64,000 bases of DNA, taken from positions 32,001 to 96,000 of the IMG/VR virus record IMGVR_UViG_3300028591_000003; one strand, written 5' to 3'. The position numbers and the translations under genes are program-made. Position 1 is the stretch's first letter. Each line of letters begins with the position of its first letter. Below the pieces are notes generated by a model, which worked only from the letters and a program-made list of their open reading frames with translations, was not told where the DNA came from and searched no databases. The stretch comes from a virus (Duplodnaviria; Caudoviricetes). Below, one piece after another: positions 2,595 to 64,000 of the stretch.

Positions 2595-5041
2595 TTAAAA
2601 TCTAAATAACAATTGTCCTAATTTAGGTTTATATAAATCTGGCAATTCACCTTTTAATACTTTATCCAATCCTTTTTCATCAATAGTAATATAATTCTTA
2701 TCTTTCTTATGATTATTAACGACCCATTTTTCTTCTACTGTATCTTTAATAATAATATAAAAAACTTCTGCAATCTTATCACCTTCTTTTCTGACTGTAC
2801 GACCTCTTCTTTGTCTAGCTTTAGTTTCAGAACTATCAGTACCAAGTATTATAGCTACAGAAAGACCTGGAATATCAATTCCTTCATCTGCTTTTTTTAC
2901 GGTATTTAAAACTCCAGAAGATTGTACAGAAAAATCTTCAAGCATTGTAGCACTTCTTTTTTTAGATACTCTTCCTGTATATACGTCTCCTATTCCTATA
3001 GCTTCTGCCATATTTACATTATTAGAAAAAGTGATAATTTTTTTATCGGATCGAGCATTTATTATTTTTTTAGCTATCTCTATTTTTTTCGGATGATTAT
3101 TTATAAAAGCTTTTCTAAGTTGCATTGTTTGCATAAATCTTATAGAATGATAATTTATTGATTTTAAAATATCTTTCTTTTTTTGTTCATCATCCCCTTT
3201 ATATAACATATCTCTATATGCTAATTTATTTTTCCATCCAACTGTTGGTTTAACCATAGACATAGCTAAATTAAAGTCAAATTGAAAAAATTCATAATGT
3301 TCTATCCATTCTTTATTTAATGCTTTATATTCTTTGATGTTATCAACATCAATTAATACAATATATTCTTTATAATCAGATACCCAACCATTTACTAAAC
3401 ATTCAGCAAACGGAATATTATCAACAATTGGACAATATTTTTGCATTATTATATGTTTTCCATCAAGTCTTTCGAATGTTGCGGTAAGTCCAAGTATTAA
3501 TTTATATTTAACACAAGTAAATATTTTACTAAAATCATCAGAATTAACTCTGTGAACTTCGTCTATTACTAAAAAATCACAAGTCCAGTCATATTTAATA
3601 ACTGTATTTATTACTTGTATTTCTACATTAAAAGAAAATCCTTCTAGGTCAATTATATTTTGCCATTGATTCTTAAGTGCTGTTGTAGGAACGACAACAA
3701 GAACTCTAAAATGTGGATATTTTTTTAGTAGCCCTCGTATAGACATTACTCCCATATTTGTCTTCAGTTTTGTTATCCTATAAGCTTTTTATCTTATAGT
3801 TCTATAATTTCTTATTCATTATAGCTCAGCGTACATTTTCATCTACAGCATTATCTGTTTAGATGCAGGGCACTCTTGGATTTATTATATTTATTCAAAA
3901 TCTACGCGTTACACTACTAATTAACCTTTCGCAATTTAATTAGTTAGCTCGGTATTGGCATCACAGCTTTCACCGATATTGTCCTGTAATAATTCTTGTG
4001 ATTTCTCAACAAGAACGGCTGTGTTTATTTTAATTGGAATATATTCATTAGAATAATAAAATTTATATCCAGTCTTCTTAACTATATATGGATTTTCCAA
4101 AGTAGCATCAGAATGTTTACTTAATGTACTCTGTGTTGATCCACAAATTTTAGCACAATCTGGAAGTGTTCTAAAATAAAACAATTCTCCCTTTGGAGAT
4201 TCAGAAATAATATATTTTCCTATTGTACTTGTAGCAGTTAAAACTTTTTCATTTATATGATTTACTAAATCATTTAAATATACAAATTTAGTTTCACTTA
4301 TACAATACCTTTTTTTATATAATTTATTTTCAGAATAACTTCCATTTTTATCACTTAAAAATTTTAAAGCTGCTTTATGATAAGGAAACTCTCCAACAAG
4401 TGTTTTTGTAATAACATCATAAATATATGTAGTCTTCCAATTATGTTGTTGTTTATAAGTTTCTATTTCTCCAGATTTATATTTTTCTTTTAAAGTATTA
4501 CTAATTTTATTTTTAGTTTCATCAGAAACATTATGTCCAAAATTAGCTACTACATTTAAAGTTAAATTATACTCTGGTTTTAAAGTATCTATATAATATT
4601 GTTCTCTTGAAAACCTATTTTCAGGATTACAATATTCCAAAATACAATAAATAAAAGCATCTTCTCCATATTTATTCCAAGAAGATTGAAAATGAGCATT
4701 ATGTGACTTATTATTTTTTAAGTTATGATAATGCTCATGTATTCTATTATAAATATCTACTGATGATCCTACATATCTTTTTCCAGATTCTATGTTAAAA
4801 AACATATAAACTCCAGATTTTCCCTTTAAATTAAATTCAATTTTATTCATATACTTATTAATTTTTTATTTTAATAAATATATCATTAAATTTAATTTAG
4901 GCAAAATTAAAAATATAACAGGATATTTATTCCAGTTAAAATTTATTAACAACCAAATCCTGTAGCAGCTTCTATACTTCCTCTACCTTTAGCCTTGATC
5001 CAGTTCCTTACAGCTTCTTGTTGTCGTTCTGTTCTAGTCAT
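2595..5041 (-). CDS. SF2 DExH-box helicase, spliced: exon 1 4952-5041, exon 2 2595-3764
   Basis: Exon 1 MTRTERQQEAVRNW...EAATGFG joins in frame to KTNMGVM..., restoring Walker A (ATGFG|KT); DEVH, LGLTAT, EGIDIP and QRRGR motifs. Confidence 0.92.
3936..4850 (-). CDS. intron-encoded GIY-YIG homing endonuclease
   Basis: GVY...YVGSS...R...E...N motifs; NUMOD3-like GHNVSDETKNKIS. Confidence 0.92.
   Translation of the reverse strand: MNKIEFNLKGKSGVYMFFNIESGKRYVGSSVDIYNRIHEHYHNLKNNKSHNAHFQSSWNKYGEDAFIYCILEYCNPENRFSREQYYIDTLKPEYNLTLNVVANFGHNVSDETKNKISNTLKEKYKSGEIETYKQQHNWKTTYIYDVITKTLVGEFPYHKAALKFLSDKNGSYSENKLYKKRYCISETKFVYLNDLVNHINEKVLTATSTIGKYIISESPKGELFYFRTLPDCAKICGSTQSTLSKHSDATLENPYIVKKTGYKFYYSNEYIPIKINTAVLVEKSQELLQDNIGESCDANTELTN
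4875..4905 (-). promoter_or_regulatory. Bacteroidota sigma-A-like promoter for GIY-YIG gene
   Basis: TTTG-N19-TATATTTA; same pattern upstream of the HNH gene. Confidence 0.5.
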
Positions 5042-10679: not shown

Positions 10680-11168
10680 TCATACTCTATTTTTAAGTTT
10701 TTGAATATACATAGGATCTTCTGCATATCCTATTTTTAATAAATATTCGTAATAATCTCCGCCTTTATATCGATTACTAAATAATTTTTTATAATCTGAT
10801 ATACATTCTTTCCACGTATTATATTCTTTATATTTATTACCTTTTCGTATTCCAAATAAATTGTTCTTATTACGACAAAGTTTACTTGTATAATTTCCAG
10901 TTTCAAGTTTACTTTGTGCAAGAACAATTTTAGAATGAGGAATGTTTTGCCTTTTTAATTCGGCTAAAACATTTCCTTCATTTAAAGGTACTATTGTTTG
11001 ATGAACATAAAGTGTATCTCTACTAACAATAGTATCCCTTTTAACATCAATACTAATTACTCGATCAGTTGGGAGAGAATCAGGAGTATATCTTTCTATT
11101 CCAACTCCAATAAAGATTCCAATAAAGAGTAAACAGAATTCTTTCCAATAATTTTTTCTCATAATCAT
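10680..11168 (-). CDS. membrane-anchored GH73 glucosaminidase-like peptidoglycan hydrolase
   Basis: N-terminal TM; AQSKLETG...NNLFGIR...GYAEDPMY. Confidence 0.85.
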   Translation of the reverse strand: MIMRKNYWKEFCLLFIGIFIGVGIERYTPDSLPTDRVISIDVKRDTIVSRDTLYVHQTIVPLNEGNVLAELKRQNIPHSKIVLAQSKLETGNYTSKLCRNKNNLFGIRKGNKYKEYNTWKECISDYKKLFSNRYKGGDYYEYLLKIGYAEDPMYIQKLKNRV

Positions 11169-11189
11169 CTAATTTTAATTAAAAAATCT

Positions 11190-11297
11190 TTAAATAAATG
11201 GGTTAATTCCATAATTAATTGCAGGGCCATACATACGATTAAATCCTTCAATGTAAGCATGACCAATTTTCTTAAATAAATTTTTTACTTTTTTCAT
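11190..11297 (-). CDS. small protein (35 aa)
   Basis: MKKVKNLFKKIGHAYIEGFNRMYGPAINYGINPFI; promoter-like TTTG-N18-TATATTAG upstream. Confidence 0.55.
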   Translation of the reverse strand: MKKVKNLFKKIGHAYIEGFNRMYGPAINYGINPFI

Positions 11298-11458
11298 AAT
11301 TTACTACAAATTTAAAGTTTATAATATTAATTATCTAAATATAATACTAATATACTCATTTTTAAAAAATATCAAATGACTTGACACTTGATCTTAATCA
11401 AGAAATGAATTTACAAACTTTTAAGATATGTAGTAATAATATTTTTAAGCTTTAGTTT

Positions 11459-39452: not shown

Positions 39453-39483
39453 ATTTATTATGAAAGTAATTATTATAAAGTAA

Positions 39484-39604
39484 AAGTTACTTAGTAAAAA
39501 ACGTTGCTCTAAACCAAGCTGAGCTATCCCGAAACCCTCAGGAGTTGGATTTGAACCAACGACACACGGCTTACAAAGCTGATTCTTGATATTGTAAGTA
39601 ACTT
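39484..39604 (-). ncRNA. ACUUACAA-module RNA, circularly permuted tRNA (YrlA-like topology)
   Basis: AAGTTACTT-ACAATA..T-arm GTTGG-TTCAAAT-CCAAC, TCCTGA-loop-TCGGGA, D-arm GCTCAGCTTGGTTTAGAGC..AAGTAACTT. Confidence 0.82.
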
Positions 39605-45863: not shown

Positions 45864-47073
45864 ATTGTTTGTTGTTTGTTTATTTGGATACCACATGGTA
45901 TCCAAGATTAGATACTATTCCGTTATTTGTTTTTCTTGTGACCCTAATTAACGGACCCTCAGGATCAATTCCAATTAAATCTTCTTCTGAAAATTCAACC
46001 GGAACATCATTGAATCTTAATAATTTCATTGCGTTATATAGACAATTACTGTTGACAATGCTAATATTACAAGTACATAAATCGTACTTAAAACTAATTC
46101 TAATTCTTTTTTCATAATTGTTTGTTTTTAAAGTTTCATATTATTAATTTGTTAAAAATGTCTCCATACCCGTATTGATATGGAGACCAAACAAACTTAA
46201 CAATTTCGGCCGATTATTTATACTCGGGAGACGGCCTACCTACATGTTATCCTGAACATCGTGGCAAATCTGCCCATTAATTGGCAGTAATCATCAGTGA
46301 AATTCCGAGTTTTTCAAATTGTTAATTTCTCAGATTGTTAATTTTTAAAAATGAAAGTCTAGGCTATCAACTTTCTGGAGGACTACGAAACCCATGATCT
46401 CCTCTTTGACATAACTAGGTATGCATGTTTACCCTTGTGTTTACCTTCCCACAACTGGTGTATCCATTTTCAAGATACTGGTTCGAACTAAAATTTTGCC
46501 GTCTATTCCGAGCTGCCAACTTATTACTAAGTATAATAACGCAAGGGAAATCAACACTTACTATCCTTCTTGCTACTTTTCGTATAAGCCATGTGTGCAA
46601 CTTCCAACTGCCTCCTCCTCAGCCATATGAACTCCACCATTCAGTTGGTAACAAATGAAGTTCGGCTACACCTTTTAAATTTAAAACTAAAAATCCATAT
46701 TATTAAAAATTAATCCTCTCACGTACATTTGAGGGTTAATGCCTAATATTACGACAGAGCCTATAATTTCAAGGATGTAAATAGGTCATTAAATATTATC
46801 TCCTCACTTCCTTGGAGATCGAGCTTAACATTCAGAGACTCTTATTGAGTAGTTAAGTCTACTTACGTCAATTCCATGTGCCAGCATGGACAGATACGGA
46901 ACACAATATACTGGCATATATTGTGAACATTCGCTAAGTATTTTCATGTGCATTTTATCACATGCTGCTCTGTCCGCCCTTAGCTTCTGAGGCCATTTTA
47001 CACATTTATAGTACGCAGTCCTATAATGCGCCAAGCTTTTTATTTTACTTCCCTTCTTGGTTATAGGAAGTTT

Positions 47074-47898: not shown

Positions 47899-48411
47899 AT
47901 TGTTAAGTTACTACAGAATAGAGCTGTAGGACCTCAGATGGCTAATTATACCGCTAACCTAACGTACCCTCATATTGATGGCGAGTCACAACCCCTCCGA
48001 CTGTGGACTAGGGAAACCTTACTATACTTCTGGTTTTACGAATTGTGTTTTACACCTAAAACTTGTTCAATATCCACGGTAGAATATTATTCTCCTTATT
48101 GTCTTGATGGAGCTGAAAGAACAAGAAACTGGCGTCCTCAACATCTTGGAAATCCTAACTGTTTTACGCCACATGACCATATAGTATCTATATGTTAAGC
48201 CAGGACAACTCCACGTTAGAATATTTTATATTGAGTTTTTTACAGGCTTAACGTACCTGTTATGCTCATTACGGAAGGTTCTATGTTGTACTGAAACCTA
48301 CAAGCCTACATCGTAACTTTTACCACGCTCTACGATGTTCGCGTGAAACCTAGGGACGATAGGAAATACTGCCCTTATATGGTTAGCATGCCCTCATGGC
48401 ACAAGTCATAA

Positions 48412-48750
48412 TTAATCCATTTTATGAGTTTTCCAATATCCGAAAGGAATTTTCTCGTTAAAGGGATATTCTCCCATAGAAGAATTGTCTAAATCTTCCA
48501 TTGTTACACCCAAAAAAGAATATGCATCAGCAAGAGTTTTAAATGCTTCTACACCATATCTACTATTTTCTAATGTGTCAGCAGTATAGCATTGATGTGC
48601 TATATACATTGTACTTCCACCTAAAACAGCTGTCCAATCACATTCAACTACTCGAATAAATCCAAGTAATTCACCAGAATTAGATTCTACTTTGGTTACA
48701 AAGGTCCCACCTGCAGGACCTGTTGTTACAGGAATTTGTTTTGCTTTCAT
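48412..48750 (-). CDS. hypothetical protein
   Basis: 112 aa; AACAATATG start. Confidence 0.75.
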   Translation of the reverse strand: MKAKQIPVTTGPAGGTFVTKVESNSGELLGFIRVVECDWTAVLGGSTMYIAHQCYTADTLENSRYGVEAFKTLADAYSFLGVTMEDLDNSSMGEYPFNEKIPFGYWKTHKMD

Positions 48751-48768
48751 ATTGTTAATTGTTTGTTT

Positions 48769-48840
48769 GTTTGTACGAATATATTTTTTCGTTTCGTTCT
48801 GGCCTCATCAGCAAACCTTTTTAATGTCTTCCAGAATGAC
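48769..48840 (-). ncRNA. type I hammerhead ribozyme
   Basis: GUUUG-CUGAUGA-G-GCCAGAA-C-GAAA-CGAA-loop-UUCG-UA|CAAAC; loop II CCAGAA complementary to upstream UUCUGG. Confidence 0.85.
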
Positions 48841-49392
48841 GGAGTCTTAAGTTTGGAACAAACTTGAGACCTTGGTATTTTTACAGGATTTTAAAAATTC
48901 TGTTAGTTTATACTCAACTAATTTTTTAAAAATTTTCTAACACTTCAGAAATAAATAATTTTCAAACATAAATTTTCTATCTTATGAAAATATGTATAAG
49001 ATAGCCAATTTTCGAAATCGAATTGTTTGAAAATTGTTAATTGAGTTGGCGATGTTGACAGTCCTTTTGAGTATATCTCTTACATACAAATTTTGCATAA
49101 AACATACTCTCAACACTGTGGAACATATACTTAACTTGAGTTATTGTGAAACTATATCTTAGTATTAAATAAAATTAGTTCCCTATTCATCTCGAACTGG
49201 GAACTAATTACACTAAAACATTATTCACTCATAAAATTCAAAAATTTCCAGTAGAAACCCCTCTTCTCGAGGAGAAAGTAACCGGACTTCCCAACAATCC
49301 AGTCAGGAAGCCCGATTACTGAGAGCACATAATTATCGGTAATGATGTGGCTACTATCCTTCACCACACCAAATACTGTAATCATATGACGA

Positions 49393-49932
49393 TTACTTAC
49401 CGAAAGTGAATACCGGCAGCTTACGGTCGCGAGTGCCGGTAATCTGGCCGTCACGGTTGTAACGTGCGGCCTTCACCGGAACAAGGTCAGCAACAACCAG
49501 AGTCTTACCCTTGATTGCATTCCAGACCTCCTGGTCATTGGCGCAGGCGGCGACGGCGTCATACACATCGTGATGCTCCTTAGTTGAAGCAGGTACAATA
49601 CGACCCGAAGGAGTCAGATCTGCCTTGTACTCAGGAACGTTACGATCGAGCGCACTGAAGAACAGGTTCTTACTGGTAGCTACACCAGCTGACTCAGCGG
49701 GACAAATTACACCATAACTCTCGCCTCCCCGGAATACACTCTTGAACAGAGTATCACCATTTGCAGGAACATACAGGATGTCACCCTTCTGATACTGAGC
49801 ACCGGCAGGATCGCTCTTGGTACGCTCTACCAAATCACTCTCGAGACTAGCGCCAACATTGTTAACGCCCATACGCTTAGCAGCAAGCTCAACTGCAGCC
49901 TTGCTACTCTTAATAACATCTTCTTTCTTCAT
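49393..49932 (-). CDS. hypothetical protein, GC-rich codon usage (probably early, highly expressed)
   Basis: 179 aa ORF. Confidence 0.85.
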   Translation of the reverse strand: MKKEDVIKSSKAAVELAAKRMGVNNVGASLESDLVERTKSDPAGAQYQKGDILYVPANGDTLFKSVFRGGESYGVICPAESAGVATSKNLFFSALDRNVPEYKADLTPSGRIVPASTKEHHDVYDAVAACANDQEVWNAIKGKTLVVADLVPVKAARYNRDGQITGTRDRKLPVFTFGK

Positions 49933-50306
49933 TTTTTTGAAAGTTTTAATTGTTAATAAATGTTGTTAATTACTACTATTAACGTAAGCATAAACGGTCC
50001 GCTGTTCAAAGCACAACGGACGAAGCTCTATTTCTTTTTGGTAAATTTTCTTAGATAAGATGGACTAGTGTTATCACCATCATGTGTCTCACTGCACTTA
50101 CAGAGACTTGTGGAACGTTTCAATTCAATTACGGAGTCTAGAAACTTCAAAAACTTCTTACGTACTCCAACCTCAATCGCACTCTTCTCGTGAGGATGTA
50201 GTCTTTAAACTACTACAGAAAAACAACATATATATGCTGCTCTGCTAAAGATATTAATATGCTATACATATGGCTACGTTTTACCTATTGCCTTGGGGTC
50301 GGTGGA

Positions 50307-50338
50307 AAAAAATGGGGCGGTCGTATGCACCGCCCCAA
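50307..50338 (-). terminator. intrinsic terminator
   Basis: TGGGGCGGT-loop-ACCGCCCCA followed by T run, just after the stop at 50343. Confidence 0.8.
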
Positions 50339-50342
50339 ATGT

Positions 50343-50798
50343 TTAGATGAATGTAACAAGCGCCTTGTTCATAGCACGGCGACCACCAACACGACGCAAT
50401 TTCTTCACATCGAAATTAAACTTCTTGGTGGTAGCGTTGAGTGCTTCCCAACGTGAGGCATCATCGTCTTTCTCAGACGTGAAACCTTGCGACACCACGA
50501 AGTTGTTACGGTCATCGACATAGGTAGTTTGTTCTAAGTTAGCCACGGGAATTAAATCCCCTGTTTCCTTCAGACAAACAGCCATAAAAGAATGTGGCTG
50601 TCCATCAGTACCAACGTACTCGGGATAGTAAATGTTGACTTTATTTTTGTCAGCCCCTGAACCACCCTTGAGTTCAAGAGTGTAAGTCCCCTTGGGAACG
50701 AGAGTTAAAGCCTGCTGATAACGAATTTGTTCGGCAGACTTGGTATTAATTTCATCAACGGTTGCAGGGCGAATGCCTGCGATTTCAGATTTCTTCAT
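50343..50798 (-). CDS. hypothetical protein, first gene of minus-strand arm
   Basis: Likely start MKKSEIAG at 50798. Confidence 0.8.
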   Translation of the reverse strand: MKKSEIAGIRPATVDEINTKSAEQIRYQQALTLVPKGTYTLELKGGSGADKNKVNIYYPEYVGTDGQPHSFMAVCLKETGDLIPVANLEQTTYVDDRNNFVVSQGFTSEKDDDASRWEALNATTKKFNFDVKKLRRVGGRRAMNKALVTFI

Positions 50799-51035
50799 AA
50801 AGCGATTAAATTTAAATGAATAATGTTGTGTCGGCAGAGCGGCATACGCGTTCATACCTGTAGGTATGTACACACTTTACACATTGACTACGTTTTCCCA
50901 TAGCGGGGCCCAGGGGGCTACCCGCTAGGGTGTCGTCTTAGTCATATAACACAAAAAATTTTTAAAAAAATTAAAAAATTTTCAAAAAAAAATTAAAAAT
51001 TTTGAAATTCAAAAATTAAATATAAAATATGAGTT

Positions 51036-52232
51036 ATGAAAAAAATATTAATTTTATTAACGGCTTTTATGTTTGTAGGATGTAACAAACATGAGATACT
51101 TTATAATTCACAAGCAGAAGATAATTATAATAAAGCATTTATAACTTCTTTTGGTTAGCCTGCTTTAGATCAAGATTGGGGATTTGGAAATACTTCTACT
51201 ACTCGTGGATATGATACTAACGCAAATAACTGGGCATAGAATGGATGGACAGTTCCTTTAAAAATAACAGATGAAGAAAGAGAAAAAGTTAAAACCTATT
51301 TTTCACAAGAACGTAAAATAGATATTTCAGAACAAGTTAATTGGTCAGATTTCTTTGTACAACAAGTTTATAAAGGAGAATCAACTTATACAGCCAAGAA
51401 TAATGGAAGTGTAGGAAAAGGTTCAGATCATATGGATTATTTAACATGTGGTAATGATGAACATATTTACAATTTTAATAATGGCAAAGGTAGTAATACA
51501 TATGTTAATTATTCATATGTTGAGATTCCAAATGTAGATAAAAATAATTGGAAAAAATATTGGAATGATGAAATTTCATTAATGACTAATTCTTCTACTT
51601 CTCGTTTTGGTTATCATAATTCAACAGACAATAAACAGCATTATGAATATTTAATAGCATTTATTGATGGTGCATACTATGTAGGATTTGATTTTTGTGC
51701 AAATGGTACTAATACCAATCAACAAGTAGACAGAGATTATATTTATAATGATTGGATTATAAAAATTAGTCCAGGAAAGGATTTGCCAAAACCAGCAGTT
51801 CGTATTATATGTGAAGATTTAAGTGTTGGTACTGATTTTGATTTTAATGATATTGTATTTGATGCAACATATGAAACAGATGGTAAGACAAAAATTACAG
51901 TTTTAGCAGCAGGTGGAACTTTACCTTTATATATAGAAGGAAAAGAAGTACATGAATTATTTGGAGTTCCACGTTCAGTAATGGTGAATACAGGAATATG
52001 TTCTAGAAAACCAGTATCTTTTATACTTGATAGAATTATTGCTCCTTGGAATATCGAAATAACAGTAATGAAAGAACATCAATTAATTCCATTAAAAGCT
52101 GAAGTAGGTAATCCAGCATCAAAAATTGCAGTATCTCCATCATTTAATTGGTGTAAAGAAAGAGAAGATATTAGAAGTAAATATCCAGATTTTTCAAAAT
52201 ATGTACAAAACACATCAGTTAATTGGTATTAA
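51036..52232 (+). CDS. lipoprotein with DUF4842/LruC-like C-terminal domain; TAG=Gln
   Basis: MKKILILLTAFMFVGC signal in frame with the track ORF through 2 TAG; EDL..DFDFNDIVF..LAAGG..WCKER. Confidence 0.78.
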
Positions 52233-52279
52233 CATTTTTTAAATTTGAGTTTTATAAATTGATAATAATTTAATATCAT

Positions 52280-52636
52280 ATGAAACAAGAAGAAATGATT
52301 AAAACTCTTGTGAAAGAGTTGATGGAATTGGATGAACTACATCAAGAATATCAAGATAAAGATACTCACTTTGTAGTAGATTCTTAGAAAGAAGGTAATA
52401 CTTTAACAATTAAAGTACAACTTTTAGAAAATAAAGATAAGGAACAGTTTGAAAAATGGTTAGAAAGTATAGATGATGATATATTATCTGAAGTTTTAGA
52501 AGAAGTTAATAGTGATGGAGATTTAAATGAACTTTATAATTCTGAAAATTATAAACAAGCTATTAATAAAGTAAAATCTAAAACTAAAGAAATTATAGAT
52601 GAAAAGATTAAATATCTTAAAGCAATTAAATTTTAA
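52280..52636 (+). CDS. acidic hypothetical protein; TAG=Gln
   Basis: 118 aa through one TAG. Confidence 0.7.
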
Positions 52637-52700
52637 TATTGGCCAGTGATGATAAATATTAAAATTTTATACTCTTAGAAAGGCATCTAAGAGATTTTAT

Positions 52701-52776
52701 TGGGGCGTAGTCGAGCGGCTTCAGACTGGAGACTCTAAATCTCTGCATTACGCGGGTTCGAATCCTGCCACCCCAA
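52701..52776 (+). tRNA. amber suppressor tRNA(CTA), probably Gln-accepting
   Basis: GGAGA-CTCTAAA-TCTCT; U1-A72, G2-C71, G3-C70 as in tRNA-Gln. Confidence 0.92.
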
Positions 52777-52793
52777 CTAGACGTAAATGAATT

Positions 52794-53108
52794 ATGTTAA
52801 TATATAAACCATTAAACTTAATGAAATTCATATATAATGGAAGGATATATAATCCTTCAAATTTAGAGAAAAAACTTAAAAAAATGGGAATAACAATCAA
52901 TGATATTGAAATTATTCCCGAGAAAAAGAAAAATGATTCTGGAATAGAAGATTATATGCTAGACAAAGAACAAGTTATTATACGTTCTACAAAAGATGAT
53001 ATTAGAAGAATATGTTATGTTAAAAAAGGAGAAAGACCTCCAATTAAAGATATTTTAAACAATTTATATTTTGAAGAAGAATTAATGACAATGTATTATG
53101 AGAACTGA
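52794..53108 (+). CDS. hypothetical protein
   Basis: ORF track; start may be 52821. Confidence 0.65.
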   Translation: MLIYKPLNLMKFIYNGRIYNPSNLEKKLKKMGITINDIEIIPEKKKNDSGIEDYMLDKEQVIIRSTKDDIRRICYVKKGERPPIKDILNNLYFEEELMTMYYEN

Positions 53109-53256
53109 ATTATTTCGTTAGCTTTATGAAGCTAATATTGATGAAATTAAAGCTATAGAACAATTATCTATAGATCACAATATGCTTGATAATGGATATT
53201 ACCTTCATTGGAAAGACATGTTAAATAAATATAGTGAAGATGTTGATAGACAATAA
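53098..53256 (+). CDS. small hypothetical protein; TAG=Gln
   Basis: 52 aa through one TAG. Confidence 0.55.
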
Positions 53257-53295
53257 AAATAGGCAGCCTCCTTTTTAGGAAGTTGCCTATTTTTT
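53255..53295. terminator. bidirectional terminator between convergent genes
   Basis: AAAAATAGGCAGC...GTTGCCTATTTTT. Confidence 0.7.
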
Positions 53296-54504
53296 ATTTG
53301 ATAATAAAGTTCCAACTGTTCCAAGTCCTTGAGCAATAATATCTCCAAAAGGTGGAGTCTGTTGTAATAACTACTATTGAATATACTAATCTGCTTCTTG
53401 AGAAGCTTTTTGTCTAGCAGCTATTAAAGCATTAGAAGCTAATCGATTTCGGTTATATGCTGTAACAATAGGACTAGAATTATAATCTGGATTTTCCTAT
53501 TTAAGTCTTTCTTCTTCCTATTTTATCTACTAAGAAAAATCTTCAGGTTGAATAGAATTAATATAAGATTGTTTCCATCTCTATAATTTTTTATTTAATT
53601 CCTATTGTTCAATACTAGATGAAATTCCATTATATAATTGAGATCCTAAACTAATAATAGATTTTCCAGTATCGCTATTTAAAAAGTTTCCAATTTTCTA
53701 TCCTTCCTAAGCTTTAATAATGCCTCCAAACTTATGTTTTCTTCCTTTAACAGTTACTTCAGGTAAATATGTGGAATGTGTTGGGGTTTTAACTCCATAA
53801 TAATCATCTAAATATATTCTATCATAAAAAGAAACTGGAGTACCTATTCCTCTAGAATCATCTCTTTCTCCTGCGGATCCTCCAAACGGAGATAAATCCC
53901 ATTTATCATAATAAGAAACATATTCTCCTTTATCATCATATCCCCTACTTATAGTATGGTTTCCTAAATCCTAAGATAAAGAGGTATCAACTCTAGATTC
54001 TCCTATATTAAGAGGTTTATCATATCTTCTTGAATTATACATAGAAGATATTAAATGTGATATACTTCCCTAATGGTATCCTTTTTCTCTCCAAGCAGTA
54101 ACAGTAGGAGAAGCATAATATTTACTTCCTGATTTTCCTATAGTCGGCTAATATTTGGATTCTACTAATTTATACTCACTCTCATGTCTGTCCTTTTCTG
54201 GAATATTTAAATACTCTGCAAAAATGGGATCTCTTTGTTCATTTAAATAAGCATGTTTATTGTCACCCCTTTTTATTCTTCTATCTTTTTCGTTATTAAC
54301 TACAGCATTTCTAAATCTACCTATTACATCATTATAACCGTGTGGATATAAATTATTATATAATCTTTGTCTAACAATAGAAATAGGAAGTCCTCCGGTC
54401 ATATATCTATATCCTATATTTTCAATAGTTTCTTGATTAAACTATGGAAAATATCCAGAACCTCCAGTAGTAATTGGTTTACCCTATTGATATTTTCTAA
54501 CCAT
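53275..54504 (-). CDS. hypothetical protein (possible virion cargo); TAG=Gln
   Basis: Single frame from ATG at 54504 through many TAG; contains track fragment 54148-54402. Confidence 0.72.
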
Positions 54505-54593
54505 ATTAAAAATATTTAATTATTCAGTAAACTTGAACTTTTCCATCGGTAAAATTGGATTTTACTGATGGTAAAACTAATTCACTAAATGTG

Positions 54594-55892
54594 TTAGTTA
54601 ATTAATAAATTTCCTAAGTTACTATAAATCTATCTCTTTAATTTGAATTCATCTACAATACTTCCTCCGTTCCTATGTTTGAAGTGCCTTGCGTTCTAAG
54701 CAAAAGTAGCTCTTTTTCTAATAGCAGGATTAGAAGAATTTTTACCCTTCTAAATACATTCTTGAGTTACTTTTCCTCCACAATATTCTGTAAACTTTCC
54801 TCTATTCTCTTTCTTTATATGAATTCTTCCACCTTTCTTAAATTCATGAGGTCTCCACCCTATAATAGGATGTTTCTTATAATATTTAAATCCAGAATTT
54901 ATAGGTTGTGAATTTACAGAACCATTATTATATGGAAAAGCTTCTACTCCAAGAGAAGCATTTGAATCTAATACTTGAATTGGATTATACCCTTCACCAT
55001 ACATTTCCTTCATCTATCTAGGAGTAGCATCTCTTAGATTATATTGATAATCAACATATTTTCCACCATTAATCCAAGTAGTTGCATCAGGTTTTCCTTC
55101 AATTACATATTTTTCTGCAAACGGAACCTCTCCTTTTCCAAAATAAGGACCAAAATGTAAATCTGGATTATTAGTTCTAATTATTCCAGTATTTTTAGCA
55201 TCTTGAATCGCATCTTTTCCTACTGTTCTATAAAAGTTATTAGGATTAAATGGCATATGTCTTTGAATAATTTTTCCTTCATTCCATAGAAATTTAGCAG
55301 GTTTAGATGCTAATTTAGATATTTTAGAAACACCACCTACTTTAACCGTTGCTGCATTTAAAGCATCCATTGCTCCAGAACCTGCTCCTTCTAAAATTTT
55401 ACCTTCGTTTAAAGTATTAATAGTTTTTCTAAGTCCATTAGATCCAGCAAGTTCTAAACCTGCTTCTAAACCAAACCAAGCAGGAGTATATCCTATAGGA
55501 GTTTTTGATATTAAATGATATAACCCGTTTTCACTATTTGTTCCTCCTATATTTTTTATATAATCAATAGTATTATCTATTACATCGTTAGTTTTCTATG
55601 TTATTTCACCTTGATTATACTAGTTACCTGTAATATTTCTACCTCTAACATTATTTAATTGAGTCGCATCATCTAAAGGTATTCCTAATCGATTTGCTGT
55701 GTCATAATCTTCTACAATACGGTTTGTCCATTCATCTGCCTTTTGCTAAGCTCTTTTTTCCATTTGTATATCCGAATTAGTATATTCTCCGGCCTTATTT
55801 GTAGCAAATTGATAAAGACCAGGAACAATTCTTTTTACCTTTATTAATGACTATTTAGCATTTTTTTGCCAGTTTTTATCAAATATTCCCAT
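54594..55892 (-). CDS. hypothetical protein (possible virion cargo); TAG=Gln
   Basis: Single frame joins track fragments 55014-55370 and 54750-55013; C-terminal IHIKKENRGKFT...RKRATFA.NA module. Confidence 0.78.
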
Positions 55893-55928
55893 AATTTTAT
55901 TTATTTTTTGTTTAATTTTATTAATTAT

Positions 55929-55959
55929 TTTGACATTAATAATAATATCAATAATTTAG
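55929..55959 (+). promoter_or_regulatory. sigma-A-like promoter for lysis/packaging operon
   Basis: TTTG-N19-TAATTTAG. Confidence 0.45.
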
Positions 55960-55993
55960 GATAAATACAAATATTTTTTATTTAATTAGATAA

Positions 55994-56677
55994 ATGTTAG
56001 AAAAACTAAAAATTTTAAAAAATGTATGGGAATACATTAATAAAATAAATCCAGAAACTAGAAGTTTAATAATTATTTTACTTTTTGGATATATTTTGTA
56101 TTCTTAGATAACTGACTTTACTGAAAAAATGATTAATGAAAAATCCAATCAAGAAGTAATCTGTAATAAAAAAGCAGAACAATATTCTATGGAAAAATCA
56201 ATTGAATTAAATGAATAGGTATAGTTAATAGCAGAAAAAGATTAGGATGCTTTTGATGTATTACTTTTAAATTATCATAATAATACTCAAAGTTTACAGG
56301 GCTATAAATATTTGTATTTATCTTGTCTCACTGAAGCTCCAAGAGATTTAGATACTCCATTAATGAAATAGTAGTGGAATAGAATAGATTATATCTATTA
56401 TGCAGATGAGTTAGCTAAAATACACAGTCAAAGCTTTGTTAAATTTGAAGATATTGAAAGAATGTAGTATTAGTTACCAAAACTATATAGATTAGTTAAA
56501 TCTAGTGATGCTAAAGCTATTACATTTTTCACAATAGAAGGGCATAATTCTCCAATAGGATTAATTGTAATTTTATACAAAACTAATAAAAAATATGATT
56601 AGGCTTATGCTAAAAGAATATTACCGTGTATTTAGAAATTAGCTATATTATTAGATTATGATACAATAAAAGAATGA
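55994..56677 (+). CDS. putative holin (single N-terminal TM plus soluble domain); TAG=Gln
   Basis: 227 aa through about 10 TAG; ATGA overlap with amidase; function inferred from topology and position. Confidence 0.6.
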
Positions 56678-57279
56678 AAACTATAATTTTAGGAACAGCT
56701 CATTTAAAAAGTACTCCTGGAAAGTGTTCTCCAGATAAAAGTTTTTATGAATATCAATACTCTAGAGAAGTATGTAAAGCTATAAAAGCAATTTTACAAA
56801 ATATGGATTATCAAGTTTTTATTGATATTGAAGATGATGACTTAGATGTTAATCAAAATAGAGAATTAAATTTAAGATGTAAAATTGTTAACGACTTACA
56901 AAAAACATATAAAAATTGTATTTATGTTTCTATTCATGTTAATGCTGCTGGAAATGGAACTAACTGGATGAACGCTACGGGATGGTCTGCGTATACATCG
57001 ACTGGAGTTACTAGTGCTGATAAACTAGCCAATTGTTTATATGATGCTGCTAAAAAGAATTTAAAAGGAAAGAAAATAAGAACTGAAATGACAGATGGAG
57101 ATCCTGATATAGAATCAAATTTTTATGTTCTCAAACATACAAATTGTCCAGCTGTTCTTACAGAAAATTTCTTTCAAGATAATAAAGAAGATGTTGAATA
57201 TTTAAAAAGTAACATCGGATTTCATTAGATAGTAAGACTTCATGTAGAAGGAATACTAAAATATATTCAAGATAATTAA
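56674..57279 (+). CDS. N-acetylmuramoyl-L-alanine amidase (Amidase_3) endolysin; TAG=Gln
   Basis: AH..YEY..SIHVNA..AVLTENFF; final helix requires read-through of TAG at 57226. Confidence 0.9.
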
Positions 57280-57304
57280 AAAGAATTAAAAATGATTATG
57301 TATT

Positions 57305-58210
57305 ATGAATTATGATAAGATAAATAAAGATGTATGGTTTAGAGAATCTGATCATGTCTATGGAAATATTAACGATTCTTCAATAAAATATACTAGTGTT
57401 ACTACTTTAATTGGAAAGTATGAAAATGAATTCGATAAAGAATTTATAAGTAAATATAAAGCACTTGAAAAACTTCTTCCTTCAGATATTTGGAAAAAAG
57501 AAAAAGGAGCTATTTGGAAAAACCATAAAATTCCTAATGATTTTTTAGAAGTATATGAAATATCTGAAAAAGAATTAAATAAAGTGCAACAAGATATTCT
57601 TGATGAATGGGCACAAGTAAATAGAGAATCTTGTGAAAGAGGAACTAAAATTCATGCTCAATTAGAAAATAGTTTTTACAAAGCAGGTTCTAATGTTACA
57701 TTAAATAAATTCGGAATAGGTGGAAAATTTGTTTGTAAAAAGAATTATTCCGAACTTGACTTAGAATATGGAGTATATCCAGAATATCTTATTTACTATG
57801 ATAATCCTAAAATAAATTTACATATAGCAGGACAAATTGATCTTTTAATAAAAGATGGTAATGATATAATTATAGGAGACTGGAAAACTAATGCTAAAAT
57901 AGATCAGAAAGGATTCTACAATACTTCTACAAGAAGTACAAAGAAAATGAAATATCCTTTAACTAATATAGAAGATTGTAATCTTTGGCATTATTATTTA
58001 CAACTATCTACTTATGCTTGGATGATTCAAAAAATCAATCCTAACTTTAATATTAAAAGATTATTTATATATCATTTTGATCACGAAGGAAATGAAACTT
58101 TATACGAAGTTCCATATTTAAAAGATGATGTAGAGAAAATGTTAAAACATTTTGCTAGACAGCAAAAACTTGAAAATCAGAAAAAGAAATATGCAAGAAT
58201 TGAATATTGA
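57305..58210 (+). CDS. PD-(D/E)XK (RecB/Cas4-like) nuclease
   Basis: SVTT..RGTKIH..AGQIDL..GDWKT..QLSTY. Confidence 0.85.
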   Translation: MNYDKINKDVWFRESDHVYGNINDSSIKYTSVTTLIGKYENEFDKEFISKYKALEKLLPSDIWKKEKGAIWKNHKIPNDFLEVYEISEKELNKVQQDILDEWAQVNRESCERGTKIHAQLENSFYKAGSNVTLNKFGIGGKFVCKKNYSELDLEYGVYPEYLIYYDNPKINLHIAGQIDLLIKDGNDIIIGDWKTNAKIDQKGFYNTSTRSTKKMKYPLTNIEDCNLWHYYLQLSTYAWMIQKINPNFNIKRLFIYHFDHEGNETLYEVPYLKDDVEKMLKHFARQQKLENQKKKYARIEY

Positions 58211-58400
58211 TGAAAGATTAGCTATATGTAAAAAATGTCCGATATTTAATAATGGAAGATGTAACTCTAATTTATGGATTAATCCTGATACAAATGAGGT
58301 AAGTACTTATGCTAGAATAGGATTTATTAGAGGATGTAATTGTATTATTTCAATAAAAGCGAAAAATCGTTATAATCATTGTATAGCAGGAAAATGGTAA
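58191..58400 (+). CDS. Cys-rich small protein
   Basis: RLAICKKC..GCNC..CIAGKW. Confidence 0.7.
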   Translation: MQELNIDERLAICKKCPIFNNGRCNSNLWINPDTNEVSTYARIGFIRGCNCIISIKAKNRYNHCIAGKW

Positions 58401-58615
58401 GAAATCTCTTTCTTAAAATACGAAATATAATAATTGGTAACTGGAGAAATTTAACCGGTTATACTTCAGATGAAATAAAACGTAGAAGATAGATATGTAA
58501 ATCTTGTGAACACAATATTAAATTTAGTGGGACAAGAATCTGTGACCAGTGCGGATGTATAATAAATAGTAAAACAGCAGTGGAATCAGAAAAATGTTTA
58601 ATGAATAAATGGTAA
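58394..58615 (+). CDS. Cys-rich small protein, paralog of 58191-58400; TAG=Gln
   Basis: RR*ICKSC..CDQCGC..CLMNKW. Confidence 0.7.
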
Positions 58616-58616
58616 T

Positions 58617-59192
58617 ATGAAAGAAAAATTAGCAATGGATTTAGCAGGAGAAAGCACAACAAGAATCGTAGCTTTAGATGGAACAACAGCAGAAGATGTC
58701 ATTAATAAAAGAAATACTGAGAAACTTAATGATATGATAGATCAATATTCAGAAAAATTCGAACAAAGATCTACTAACATTAAAGAATTTGCTAATAAAA
58801 TAAATGAAAATGTCCAGAATATAGAGATAATGCCTCTTGGTAATTATGTTCTTGTAAAACAATTTGATGAAAATCCTTTTCAAAGAATTGTTAGAGATTC
58901 GAAATCTGGACTTATTATTGATACAGGCGGACTTGCTCCAGAATATAAAAATACAGATAATGGAGAAATTGAAGAAGAAAAACCGTTTATATTAGTAGGC
59001 GTTGTTCAAGAAGTTGGACCTGAATGTAAATATCTACAACCTGGAGATGCAGTATTTTACACTGTTCCATCTGCTGTACCTGTTCCATTCTATAAACAAA
59101 AACTTATACAAGTTAATGAAACTAGAGTTCTTGCTGTAGTAAATGAGTTTCTTACTGAAAGATTTAATAAGATAAAAGAAAATGGAAAATAA
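58617..59192 (+). CDS. groES: GroES-like co-chaperonin
   Basis: PLGNYVLVK..SGLII..GVVQEVGP..PGDAVFY. Confidence 0.72.
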   Translation: MKEKLAMDLAGESTTRIVALDGTTAEDVINKRNTEKLNDMIDQYSEKFEQRSTNIKEFANKINENVQNIEIMPLGNYVLVKQFDENPFQRIVRDSKSGLIIDTGGLAPEYKNTDNGEIEEEKPFILVGVVQEVGPECKYLQPGDAVFYTVPSAVPVPFYKQKLIQVNETRVLAVVNEFLTERFNKIKENGK

Positions 59193-59418
59193 TTATGTTA
59201 ATTCTCCAGATGAAAAAACATTTTTTCAGCCTGGAGATATATGTCAAATAAAATAGGATATTCCTAATAAACCTAAGATGATGGTAATAAAAATAGAGAG
59301 ATCATTATTAAAAAAAGACGAACAAAGCTATTTAAGAGGAGTTAAGTGTCGTTGGTTTACTATAAGTGGATAGTTACAAGAAGCTATCTTCTCAACAAAA
59401 GATTTAATTAAATTATGA
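59182..59418 (+). CDS. small YodC/DUF2158-like protein; TAG=Gln
   Basis: FQPGDIC..PKMMV..VKCRWF..F...DL through 2 TAG. Confidence 0.68.
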
Positions 59419-60044
59419 TAAACAAATTTCAACAAGGTGGAATTTTAGCGCAACTTCAACAGTTACCTTAGGAACAACAGTAGTAGATTATGTAGGCTTT
59501 TGCACAATGGGCACAATAGAAAGGTGTAGATATTAATTAGTTACAAAATAACCCTCAAGCTTTAGAGCAAGCATTAGGTCAATTTATGTAGGAAATGCAA
59601 TAGCAAACTCAATCAGCTCGTCATGGTGCTAAACTTCAATATATCAAATCTTTAAAACATCAATGTGCAGAAGATGAAGAAGTTGTTTATTTCAAAAGAG
59701 GTGGTTCTGTAGATTGCGGTTGTAAAAAGAAAATGGAAGAAGGTGGTCCTGTTGAAAAAAAGGATAATCCTATAAATAGATTTAAAAACAGAAATCTTGA
59801 TAAAAAAGAACAAGGTGAAAAACCAAAAAGAGAAGAACCAAAAGAACCTAAAATTAAAAGACCTAAATTATCTGATAAAAAAGATACTAACAAAGGAACA
59901 GTAAAAATTGATCACATGTGTGGTGGTTCTAAAATGAAACTTCAAAAGAAAGGCGGAGAAGTATGTCCTAAATGTGGAAAAGTTCATTCTGCGGGAATAG
60001 GATGTGCTATTGCTAAATTTAAAATGAGAGGTGGAATCCTTTAA
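59415..60044 (+). CDS. Gln-rich hypothetical protein; TAG=Gln
   Basis: LQQLP*EQQ**IM*AFAQWAQ*KG, in frame with track ORF 59733-60044. Confidence 0.8.
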
Positions 60045-60070
60045 TTAATTAAATAAATGTTAATGTAAAT

Positions 60071-60622
60071 ATGAATTTAAATGTTTTTGATTATGATTAG
60101 AGAACTGGAAAAGTAATTCTCAATTCAGCGGATCTTGCTCTTATTGATGAATTTAAAACAATCATTAAAAGAGATAAAGATCGTGCTGATAGAGAATTTA
60201 CTTATATATATTTAGCAATTGATTGGAAATCTCCTTATAATGGATATTCAGAACAAGAGAGACATGAAGCAGCATTACAAGATGCTCATATTACTGAAGA
60301 AGAATGGAATGATCCTTCTTTTAGAGCAGCTTGTAGAAAATACAGAGCATTACAAGAGTCTAATCGTTACGTAAGACTTCTTAAATCTGCTGAATTGGTA
60401 ACTGATAAAATTATCGATTATTTTAATAATGTAGATTTAGAAGAACGTGATGAACAAACTGGTAAATATGTTAATAAAGTAGCTGATATACAAAAAGCTA
60501 TGGAAAACGCTTCTAAACAAATAGAAACATTAAAAATGATAGAATCTCTTGTTAAGAAAGAAATTGCTGAACAAAGTCAGATTCGTGCTGGAGCTACAGA
60601 AGGATTTGTTCCTGATTTTTAA
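60071..60622 (+). CDS. protein upstream of terminase (possible small subunit); TAG=Gln
   Basis: 183 aa through one TAG; stop overlaps the terL start. Confidence 0.7.
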
Positions 60623-62964
60623 TGGAAGAACAAATTAAAAAGAAAAGAGGTAGACCTCGTAAAAATCCTATTCTCCCTGAAGAAATTTAGTCTTTAGTAA
60701 ATGAAGTTCAAGAAAAAAGTTAGTAGCTCCAAAAAGAAACAATAGTTAAAGAAGAAATTCGTTCTAAAGAAGGCGAATGGGATGTTAAAATAAATGATTC
60801 TATTGAATATTTTGATAAAAGATTATCTTATGAAATAACAGGCTATAGACCTATTACAGAAACACAAGGATTAGATTTTGATCCAAGTTGGTTTACTGAA
60901 GCTAGAGATAATAAAATAAAAACTGGACATTATACATCTTATTATTTTGGTTCAAAAGCATATAGAGATTTTTGGAATCAAGAATATAAAAGATGTAGAG
61001 AAGGAATGACAGTTAACGGATATACAATTCCTGGAACATATTATTATTTTCTTAATTATTATCAATTGCCTCAGACTGAAGTTAAAAAACTTGGTACTAG
61101 TCGTTCTGATATATTTCCAGAGTTCTATACTGCTCAATATGAGTTTTTTCATTATTTTGAATTATGTAAAATACTTAAAAAAGATGTTTGTATGTTTAAA
61201 TCTAGAGGTATAGGTTTTAGTGAGATAAATGCTGCTATTTGTGATTAGATTTATAACTGTTATCCTAATTCAGTATGTATGATTTCAGCATTTGCTTAGA
61301 ATTATGTTGATAAATCTCTTGATAAAGTATGGGGAGGTCTTACATTTGCAAATGATAATACAGATGGAGGATTCTTTAAACTTCGACAAGTACTTGACAA
61401 ACAAATGATTAAGAAAGCTTCTTATTATAAAATAGTAAATGGACAAAAAATTGAAGATGGATGGATGTCTATGATTGAAGCAATTGTTGCTGATAATGAT
61501 AGAAAAATTCGTGGTGATCGTGTAGATTTATTAGTATATGAAGAAGCTGGATCTAATCCTGTTTTAAGAAAATCTTATATTAAAGGTAATGCTCTAGTAG
61601 AAATTGGAGGTAACAGGTTTGGTATTAGAGTCGTTGGCGGTACTGGTGGTGATGTTGATGGGCTTGAAGGATTATCTGATATGTTTTATAATCCAGAATC
61701 TTACAACATTTTACCCTTTCTTAATAACTATACTGAAGATGGAGAATGGGTAAAAACTGCATTTTTTATTCCAGCTAATATTGCTTTCTATAGAGATGGT
61801 TATGTAGACAAAAGAGGAGTTTGCGATATAAAGAAAACTACAGAATTTTATATGAATGAAAGAGCTAAACTTGAAGCTACTCCAAAAGCTTTAGTAGACT
61901 ATAAAGCAGAATATTGTCTATATCCATCTGAAGCATTTGCTCTTGAAGGACAAAACAATTTTAATAAAGTAAAATTAGTAGAACAAATATCTGCAATTAA
62001 GTTTAAAAAAGCAATTGTTCCAAATATCGAAAGAGGATATATGGAATTTGTATATAGTGATCCAAATCACAAAAGAGATAGTATTAAAGGAGTCAGATTT
62101 AAGCCACATCCGAATGGACCTGTTTATATATTGCAACATCCTCTTTGGGAAATCCCAACAGGATAGGATATAGAACCTGGTGAAACAGATGAAGAATATT
62201 CTTACAGAAAATCATCAGAAGAACAAGTAGCTTATAGTAAAATGAATAATTTGTATGTAGCAGGAATAGACGGAATTGATTTAGGATAGGAAGATACTTC
62301 TGATTATACTAAAAATCCATCTAAATTTTGTACTGTTATTAAAAGAAGAGTTCATGGAATGAAAGAGCCTATGTATGTAGCATATTATTTAGATAGACCT
62401 TAGCGAATAGAAGAAGCTTATGAGTAGACTCTAGCATTAATGTATTATTATAATGCTAAAGGAAATATAGAAGCGTCTAAAGTCGGAGTTTTAACTTGGG
62501 CTAAAAAAGAAAAATGGATTAATTACTTTATGCGAAGACCAAGAGTATGTTCCGGTGATCCAGCTAAAAGACCTTCTGGTAATGCACCTTATGGAACAAC
62601 GACTGCTGTTGCTATGATATAGCATGGACTAGATTTAATAGCTTCATATATAGAAGAATATTTTCATAATATATGGTTTTTAGATATGCTAAATTAGTTT
62701 CTTAAATATTCTTACGAGAATAAAGGAAAGTTCGATATTGTAGCAGCTTGTTAGATGGCTGAAATTGCAGATGAAGAACTATCTGAATTAGTTCCAGTAT
62801 AGGTTAAAGAAGCTAAACGAAAATTTTAGGATATTGGATATTATAAAGATAAAAATGGATATACTCGTTTTGGAATAATTCCAAGATAGGAAGAATAGAA
62901 AATTCAAGTTAAATGGGATAATTCTGATGGAGGAAATAGAAATAGTAATCCTGAATATAGATGA
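60622..62964 (+). CDS. terL: terminase large subunit; TAG=Gln
   Basis: 780 aa through about 16 TAG; KSRGIGFS, LLVYEEAG, GGTGG, YVAGIDGID. Confidence 0.92.
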
Positions 62965-63227
62965 ATAATTTAGAAAAAGCTATCTTAGATATTATTGAAA
63001 ATCGTTATAAACGAAAATATACTGGAGGTATAATTGTAACTAGATTAATATCAGGATATAAATTAGTTTTGGATTTAGGTAATCCAGATAAAAGGATAAT
63101 ACAAATATCTGTTGATTGTAATTCAGAAGAAGATTTTTTAAAATATATCGAACAAGAACTCATATCTAGACAATTAGAAAGAGTACAATTTTTTAGAGGA
63201 GTTGTAAATTATCCAGAAGATGAATAG
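62961..63227 (+). CDS. hypothetical protein
   Basis: 88 aa between terL and portal. Confidence 0.75.
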   Translation: MNNLEKAILDIIENRYKRKYTGGIIVTRLISGYKLVLDLGNPDKRIIQISVDCNSEEDFLKYIEQELISRQLERVQFFRGVVNYPEDE

Positions 63228-64000
63228 AGAAGAATTGATTGCAAAAACTAATTTGGCTATAGGTGAACTTGTTTATGATAAAGAGAAATTAAGAAAATCT
63301 TATAACTATTATAATTGTAAACGAGATCAGGAATAGTTTAAATATTTGGAAGAAAATTATGGAATAGGACAACCTACTGCTGTAGAATTTATTCCTTTAA
63401 TAAGAAAACACGTTGATGCTCTTGTTGGAGAATATTTAGATATTCCAATTCTTCCTAAAGTTTCTTGTAAAGATGAAGAAACTATAAATAATATATTTAG
63501 AGAAAAGTAGTTAAAAATATCTACTGAATGTTTTCAACTGTTACAAAGAAATCTAAAAAATAATTTATTAAAGGTTCTTGGTAACAAAGATATGACAGAT
63601 TTAAATATAAAAGAACAATTAGATAATTTAATTGAGGATATAAATGAAAATTTTATTTCTCAATATGAAATAGCTGGACAAAATATAGTTGAATATATAA
63701 TTCAATCTAGAAATACAGATTTAGTTACTAAATTAAAATAGTTATTTATAGATGTTTTAGTAACTGGGTTTAATTTTTATAGAGTACTTCCCTCTCCTGC
63801 TGGATAGAACATTTAGATAGAATGTTTAAATCCATTAAATGTATTTCCTGATTTGAATTATGATTCTCCTTATATTAAAGATTCTTATAGAATAGTTGTA
63901 CGAAAATATCTTACTAGAAATGAAGTTCTTAATAAATACGGAAAAGATTTATCTAAAGAAGATATTTCGAAAATAAAAGAATTATGGGAAGACCATTTAG
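63220..64000 (+). CDS. portal protein, N-terminal part; TAG=Gln
   Basis: YNYYN..FIPLIRKHVDALVGEY..LNPLNVF; open to window end except TAG; follows terL. Confidence 0.8.

Follow-up and report, generated by a model that had tools for sequence, protein, structure and literature searches.

The window analysed here, a stretch of 64,000 nucleotides, comprises bases 32001–96000 of an IMG/VR phage record that is complete, is 176,443 bp long and has terminal repeats. The genome has a G+C content of 29% and its two arms diverge within the window. The plus-strand arm (window 51000–64000; genome coordinates above ~83 kb) is open only under TAG read-through, which raises its coverage by ORFs of at least 100 amino acids from ~0.45 to ~0.97 and its longest ORF from 750 to 3845 amino acids. 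A tRNA with the anticodon CUA is encoded at the start of this arm (52701–52777, plus strand). The minus-strand arm follows the standard code and contains 23 tRNA genes, a helicase and homing-endonuclease-like genes. It is this arm, probably the early one, that harbors the element described below, ca. 2.5 kb from the point of divergence and among small ORFs of no assigned function. Shine-Dalgarno-like motifs precede only 8 of its 94 ORFs, and translation starts therefore probably depend on unstructured A-rich leaders. Such leaders serve translation starts in Bacteroidota.

Positions 48842–48769 of the minus strand read as a complete type I hammerhead ribozyme, directly followed by a short leader and an ORF (Table 1). 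The core consists of C3 U4 G5 A6 N7 G8 A9, G12 A13 A14, the pair A15.1:U16.1 and a residue H17 other than G, with Watson-Crick pairs, supported by covariation, adjoining it in stems I, II and III. Two further features place the element with the RAGATH-1 or pseudoknot hammerheads. Firstly, the loop of an additional hairpin, helix IV, and the loop standing in for helix II are joined in a pseudoknot (UUCUGG:CCAGAA). Secondly, stem II is a single pair closing a loop of the 6–7-nt class (G[GCCAGAA]C), accompanied by the linker AUUAAAAAG. Comparative genomics brought pseudoknot hammerheads to light (Weinberg et al., 2015, Nat Chem Biol 11:606, as cited in PMC11300833). In the corresponding family, RF03152, helix I bears an extra stem-loop, whose loop pairs with the one that takes the place of helix II (PMC11300833). 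When crystallised, this form showed a 6-bp helical pseudoknot and an A-rich linker, AUAAAA, that makes a triplex with helix IV in the minor groove (Zhan et al., 2024, PMC11300833). Cleavage by this form proceeds at 16 per min, faster than in extended hammerheads (PMC11300833). In hammerheads whose stem II is a single pair, activity is lost on disruption of the pseudoknot, and compensatory changes restore it (PMC3088659).

Table 1. Features of the ribozyme locus in window coordinates; all lie on the minus strand.
Feature	Position	Strand	Description
A/T-rich upstream module	48874..48950	-	conserved, single-copy; small hairpin, TTTTAAAAAA, GTTGAGTAT, AATCCTGTAAAAATACC
Inserted hairpin	48843..48871	-	13 bp with one mismatch; between upstream module and ribozyme
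Helix IV hairpin GUC/GAC	48826..48840	-	3 bp, G48840-C48838 with G48828-C48826; 9-nt loop AUUCUGGAA
Pseudoknot 5' strand UUCUGG	48836-48831	-	supplied by the helix IV loop
A-rich linker AUUAAAAAG	48817..48825	-	between helix IV and stem I
Stem I 5' strand GUUUG	48812..48816	-	5 bp with CAAAC 48773-48769
Catalytic core CUGAUGA (C3-A9)	48805..48811	-	from sequence and Rfam match
Stem II, one pair G48804:C48796	48796..48804	-	7-nt loop GCCAGAA
Pseudoknot 3' strand CCAGAA	48802-48797	-	in stem II loop; 6 Watson-Crick pairs with UUCUGG
GAAA (G12-A15.1)	48795-48792	-	A48792 pairs with U48775
GAAA and stem III hairpin	48775..48795	-	A-CGAA / UUCG-U, 5 bp, 8-nt loop
Predicted scissile bond	48774/48773	-	A48774 (H17), then C48773; triplet GUA
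Stem I 3' strand CAAAC	48769..48773	-	first bases of the predicted released mRNA
Leader CAAACAAACAAACAAUUAACAAU	48751..48773	-	23 nt, A/C-rich, on the 3' cleavage product; ATG at 48750
First ORF after the cut	48412..48750	-	112 aa

An Rfam scan at gathering thresholds reported tRNAs only. In the covariance-model search with hammerhead models that the initial annotation had proposed, a single family matched, below its cut-off: RF03152, over its full length (model positions 1–77) and with 38.3 bits (E of 5.4e-5 on 401 nt and of 0.0086 on the whole window against all families), which is 18 bits under the gathering cut-off of 56.3 bits. None of the other Rfam hammerhead models matched at E ≤ 10 in the 401-nt scan. 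Relatives of the element score 40.5–46.7 bits against the same model. The shortfall is due to the short stem III, the GUA triplet and differing loop sequences, with the pseudoknot left unscored by a covariance model, and the gathering cut-off is in any case a threshold chosen by curators rather than a structural feature. A pistol ribozyme was considered and rejected, as the pistol model of Rfam also gave nothing at E ≤ 10 over the 401 nt and the core, CUGAUGA...GAAA, is that of a hammerhead.

The core and stems are, by themselves, weak evidence which chance could yield: a minimal descriptor comprising these parts gives 0.33 hits per shuffled 176-kb genome, and finds one further match in the real genome, at genome positions 4901–4936, which is probably such a chance hit. 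For a given 7-mer, the probability that the 40 nt upstream contain a complement of at least 6 bp is ~0.03. Elsewhere in the window, a hammerhead-like candidate on the minus strand (46197–46325), with CUGAUGA and GAAA ca. 90 nt apart, had no Rfam match at E ≤ 10. A sub-threshold match to YrlA, a Y RNA-like family (39 bits versus a cut-off of 69), was seen downstream of a 619-aa ORF at 39472–39590 on the same strand.

Two related phages of 179 and 183 kb each contain one copy of a near-identical ribozyme. In their 19.5-kb syntenic stretches the flanking genes share 55–89% protein identity with those of the window phage, while the segment from 48842 to 48745, which spans ribozyme, leader and ATG, is the sole DNA shared within ca. 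5 kb by the three syntenic phages (176–183 kb), at 93–95% identity. The ORFs that follow the ribozyme in these three phages (112, 114 and 129 aa) are unrelated. No second copy was found in G000, G001 or G002 with either the Rfam model or our own covariance model, giving one copy per genome, and a blastn search of phage GenBank records with window 48000–50000 had no match. In the gap after the 112-aa ORF (~48040–48240, minus strand) three blocks of 24–35 nt are identical to G002 (L131 ~11127–11300), with unrelated DNA between them and no Rfam hit; they may represent a conserved small RNA or regulatory site.

G005 and G006 are less closely related, with ~55% identity in the nuclease protein. They contain RAGATH-1 hammerheads scoring 45.6 and 46.7 bits, located on the same side and strand of the conserved nuclease gene as in the window phage. 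These differ in stem I, stem III and pseudoknot, and carry a large insert in stem III. The copy in G005 (L148, G005:C1:7590-7673, minus strand) has the core CCGAUGA, in which U4 is changed to C, a substitution that may weaken it; its sister in G006 keeps CUGAUGA. A 172-kb relative at 40% identity is without a RAGATH-1 hammerhead.

A metagenome scan for CTGATGAGNCCAGAACGAAA returned 28 stretches, 25 of them true copies, which together with the window copy make up a subfamily of 26. The catalytic core is intact in all 26. Stem I occurs in four complementary forms (GUUUG/CAAAC, UGUUCA/UGAACA, GACAU/AUGUC and GUACU/AGUAC), stem III in seven, and helix IV is flipped in one copy from GUC/GAC to GAC/GUC. 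Residue H17 is A in 21 copies, C in four and U in one, and never G. This count of distinct complementary helix versions is independent of any alignment.

Covariation was scored with a covariance model of our own, built from ten copies, whose 35 aligned matches gave 26 distinct rows, to which the pseudoknot was added. Across these rows 97.0% of cells pair, versus 76.3% in shuffles (0/500), with 95% for the pseudoknot and 100% for stem III; these percentages are somewhat flattering, as the alignment is fitted to the structure and favours pairing. Changes on both sides occur in 15 of 20 pairs, with a covariation score of 0.54 against 0.15 in shuffles (0/500), and when partners were slid by 1–3 columns at most 37% of cells paired. 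By helix, both-side changes were found in 3 of 4 pairs in helix IV, 5 of 5 in stem I, 3 of 4 counted in stem III and 4 of 6 in the pseudoknot. Helix IV and the pseudoknot covary likewise in a MAFFT alignment, which is not structure-fitted. MAFFT alignments of whole ribozymes misaligned stem III, and were replaced by core-anchored parsing and the covariance-model alignment.

The same layout extends beyond this clade. Viral contigs were scanned with the pattern CTGATGAG-N7-CGAAAC, which recovered many true members, and 20 sequences, this clade included, were parsed with the core as anchor. All 20 share one common layout with a one-pair stem II and an A-rich linker of 5–11 nt, mostly 7–9 nt, and the nine different pseudoknot sequences found among them are complementary in every case. 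The 17 among them that are RAGATH-1-type hammerheads from unrelated viral contigs display the same architecture, with an 8–9-nt hairpin loop and the same pseudoknot register.

The RF03152 match, the covariation in all helices and an architecture equal to that of the crystallised form (PMC11300833) uphold the hammerhead that the initial annotation had recognised. Its core, 5-bp stem I, stem III and 1-bp stem II were all located where it had placed them, and the pairing it had drawn between the stem II loop and an upstream UUCUGG comprises six Watson-Crick pairs that covary. On these grounds the element is very probably a functional self-cleaving ribozyme.

Downstream of the ribozyme the sequence is constant in its spacing and variable in its genes. 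In 23 of the 26 copies an AUG lies 20–28 nt after the predicted cut, and the ORFs so positioned fall into nine families without detectable mutual similarity; the three others (L154, L155 and L157) lack an ORF up to 120 nt from the cut. Neither these nine families nor the neighbouring ORFs had Pfam or PHROG hits, the 112-aa ORF of the window included. This ORF has 39 homologues at 49–91% identity and, judged by sequence, belongs to a real protein family; a search of viral contigs for relatives with its protein, and then with a 22-sequence alignment, found none. Its AF2 model has a pLDDT of 69.7, and Foldseek against the PDB returned no significant fold for it (levivirus coat proteins at E 0.2, TM 0.38).

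One contig, L179, carries tandem cassettes on the minus strand, in which a ribozyme (L179:1535-1603 and 1962-2029 for the pair) precedes a 101-aa ORF and a second ribozyme a 136-aa ORF. Both cuts lie 26 nt before the respective AUG. The two pseudoknots differ, CCAGAA and CCAAGA, the second with its partner changed to match (CCAAGA:UCUUGG). In the wider RAGATH-1 set about half of the members have an ORF 21–31 nt after the cut and the rest none nearby; the association of ribozyme and ORF is strong in this clade and is not a family-wide rule. Furthermore, the constant distance from cut to AUG could in part reflect common descent of ribozyme and leader as one block.

In the window the ATG at 48750 and the 23-nt leader agree with the cut at 48774|48773, ~23 nt before a gene, that the initial annotation had predicted. 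The link it had drawn to ORF 48412–48750 gains support from the recurrent spacing before nine unrelated families, and its term "early region" fits the location in the standard-code arm of a TAG-recoded genome. The leader itself contains no Shine-Dalgarno motif.

On the upstream side, ca. 90 nt are kept in most copies and comprise a small covarying hairpin, TTTTAAAAAA, GGTTGAG(A/T)AT and AAATCC.TAAAAAT.CC; in the window this module includes the sigma-70-like hexamers TTGAGT-18-TAAAAT. The motifs were considered as a repeated early promoter and this was rejected, GTTGAGWAT and AATCC..TAAAAA being unique to the locus. As the module occurs once in the genome, it is a locus-specific element and not a general early promoter. 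The 3' arm of the small hairpin, UUAGAA (UCAGAA in several relatives), resembles the pseudoknot strand CCAGAA, and an alternative pairing of this arm with the ribozyme is conceivable. The 13-bp inserted hairpin is found only in the window phage and in the metagenome copies L158 and L160.

No clear intrinsic terminator was found between the end of the upstream ORF (49221) and the ribozyme. Further upstream, a strong intrinsic-terminator-like hairpin (50313–50337, minus strand; 9 bp, seven of them G-C, then T7) stands directly after the first ORF of the minus-strand arm (50343–50873), and suggests that the stretch from the divergence point to the ribozyme comprises several transcription units. 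From the sequence alone, the ribozyme may either trim the short leader of its own promoter or sever read-through from the upstream ORFs.

The reading we prefer, at a probability of roughly 0.6, is that of an active pseudoknot hammerhead serving as a 5'-UTR processing and insulating module. Upon transcription of the minus-strand arm, the ribozyme would cut itself after A48774, leaving an upstream RNA that ends in a 2',3'-cyclic phosphate and a downstream message that starts with a 5'-OH on the 23-nt unstructured A/C-rich leader before the ORF; the nature of both ends is expected because hammerhead chemistry is established. The gene in the slot would thereby receive the same short leader whatever the upstream RNA, be it promoter leader or read-through, and whatever the gene. 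A fixed, unstructured leader would suit starts that do not use a Shine-Dalgarno sequence. Precedents for this reading are the hammerhead of the haloviruses HF1 and HF2 and the synthetic insulator RiboJ, both compared below. The sequence, architecture, conservation, covariation and spacing are observations, and in-vivo cleavage with any consequence for translation or stability is our inference. The specific role in insulation and in defining the leader is about evenly balanced between right and wrong. Against this reading stand stems I and III, which are short and A/U-rich, and the sub-threshold Rfam score. In addition, a 5'-OH end speeds decay in some bacteria rather than slowing it, as in Bacillus subtilis, where RNase J1 degrades the product of the glmS ribozyme.

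The alternative that survives best, with perhaps a minor share of the probability, is that the ribozyme punctuates an operon, severing the upstream genes (49221–50873) from the downstream ones for differential decay or giving the upstream fragment a structured cyclic-phosphate 3' end, with the leader being incidental. The missing terminator after 49221 is in line with this, as are the L179 pair, which brackets one ORF, and the hammerheads flanking single genes in prophage operons, for which cutting of long transcripts into gene-length mRNAs was proposed (PMC3088659). However, there is no array, G000, G001 and G002 each having a single copy; the conserved promoter-like module directly upstream means that the ribozyme may head its own transcript; and simple severing does not need the tight 20–28 nt spacing to the AUG.

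Down-regulation is improbable, in which the 5'-OH would expose the message to host RNases that depend on the 5' end and so limit or time expression of the slot gene. The fate of the glmS product provides a precedent, and the small accessory ORFs of the slot might do harm if over-expressed. Against it, the locus has no evident ligand-binding or switch element, the pseudoknot form is constitutively fast (PMC11300833), and RiboJ raises rather than lowers expression in E. coli (PMC6206723).

Rather less probable again is the view that the ~190-nt block of promoter-like module, ribozyme and leader is kept mainly as a homology patch for swapping genes, with ribozyme activity secondary. In T4-type phages, modular shuffling has been attributed to conserved promoter/stem-loop cassettes, and here an island of 93–95% identity lies inside ca. 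5 kb of unrelated DNA, with nine ORF families found downstream of the block. Compensatory changes in all helices, together with an H17 that is never G, show selection on the RNA fold and not on DNA identity only; moreover, gene swapping is compatible with the processing and insulating module and does not exclude it. A chance hammerhead-like motif or inactive relic, to which the shuffled-genome hits, the Rfam score under the cut-off and the CCGAUGA core of G005 might point, is highly improbable because all helices and the pseudoknot covary and the island is conserved, with the core intact in 26 of 26 subfamily copies.

Building on the processing and insulating module, a bolder and distinctly tentative proposal is that promoter-like module, hammerhead and 20–28-nt leader together constitute a natural portable expression cassette. 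This would be the phage counterpart of RiboJ, standardising the 5' end and the translation of accessory genes swapped into a hypervariable early slot of TAG-recoded phages, with the block doubling as a homology patch for exchange. Functions in host takeover or anti-defence are conceivable for these slot genes.

That phage and prophage operons contain hammerheads has been known since 2011, but their function in these operons is so far unproven. The subfamily offers an unusually clean natural data set, in which a near-constant ribozyme and leader precede nine unrelated genes at a fixed distance from cut to AUG, in phages whose hosts seem to start translation without Shine-Dalgarno sites. The idea of a ribozyme as 5'-UTR insulator and source of a defined leader is directly testable with a simple reporter. 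In addition, an entire branch of pseudoknot hammerheads, that of large recoded phages, goes unreported at the Rfam cut-off.

The type of ribozyme, its fold, its occurrence in phages and its position before early genes are already known; new are the sub-threshold branch of RF03152 in large TAG-recoded phages, the coupling of the ribozyme to a conserved upstream module, and its constant distance from the AUG that opens a hypervariable gene slot. With RAGATH-1 the element shares the type I topology, the CUGAUGA / GAAA / UH core, a one-pair helix II with a 7-nt loop, a 6-bp pseudoknot with the helix IV loop and the A-rich linker. It differs in that H17 is A, giving GUA rather than GUC, in the sequence of its pseudoknot of six Watson-Crick pairs (CCAGAA:UUCUGG), in a helix IV of 3 bp versus 4 bp in relatives, and in a stem III of 5 bp versus 9 bp in the model. 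The pistol ribozyme has a near-identical secondary structure, with a hairpin, a 6-bp pseudoknot and two further helices (PMC11300833), but the core sequence here is that of the hammerhead.

Among natural systems, the haloviruses HF1 and HF2 have a hammerhead positioned 13 nt ahead of their first early ORF, and mapping placed the 5' end of the transcript at the cut (Perreault et al., 2011, PMC3088659). As with the present element, the hammerhead stands a few nucleotides ahead of a start codon, in that case of the first ORF on an early polycistronic transcript of a lytic dsDNA virus. Unlike here, the virus is archaeal, the core is atypical with insertions and has neither helix IV nor pseudoknot, and the downstream gene is a conserved helicase rather than a variable slot. 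The clustered hammerheads of prophages (Perreault et al., 2011, PMC3088659) are likewise intergenic in phage operons with varying neighbouring genes and a proposed role in processing long transcripts, and the L179 relative has a tandem pair; the present element is distinguished from them by one copy per genome, a fixed distance from cut to AUG and a conserved promoter-like module upstream.

Type I hammerheads in the 5' UTRs of fungal and plant RNA viruses (Lopez-Galiano et al., 2026, PMC13725137) are also self-cleaving ribozymes in a viral 5' UTR, and their activity is reportedly needed for translation initiation (PMC13725137). Those systems are eukaryotic with cap-independent translation, whereas a DNA phage and a bacterial translation system are involved here. 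Finally, RiboJ, a synthetic ribozyme insulator which increases the amounts of both transcript and protein in E. coli (Clifton et al., 2018, PMC6206723), has the same proposed action, with self-cleavage stripping the upstream RNA context to leave a fixed leader before the coding sequence. It was engineered from a satellite-RNA hammerhead with a 3' hairpin, was tested in E. coli with Shine-Dalgarno sites, and has no common descent with the phage element.
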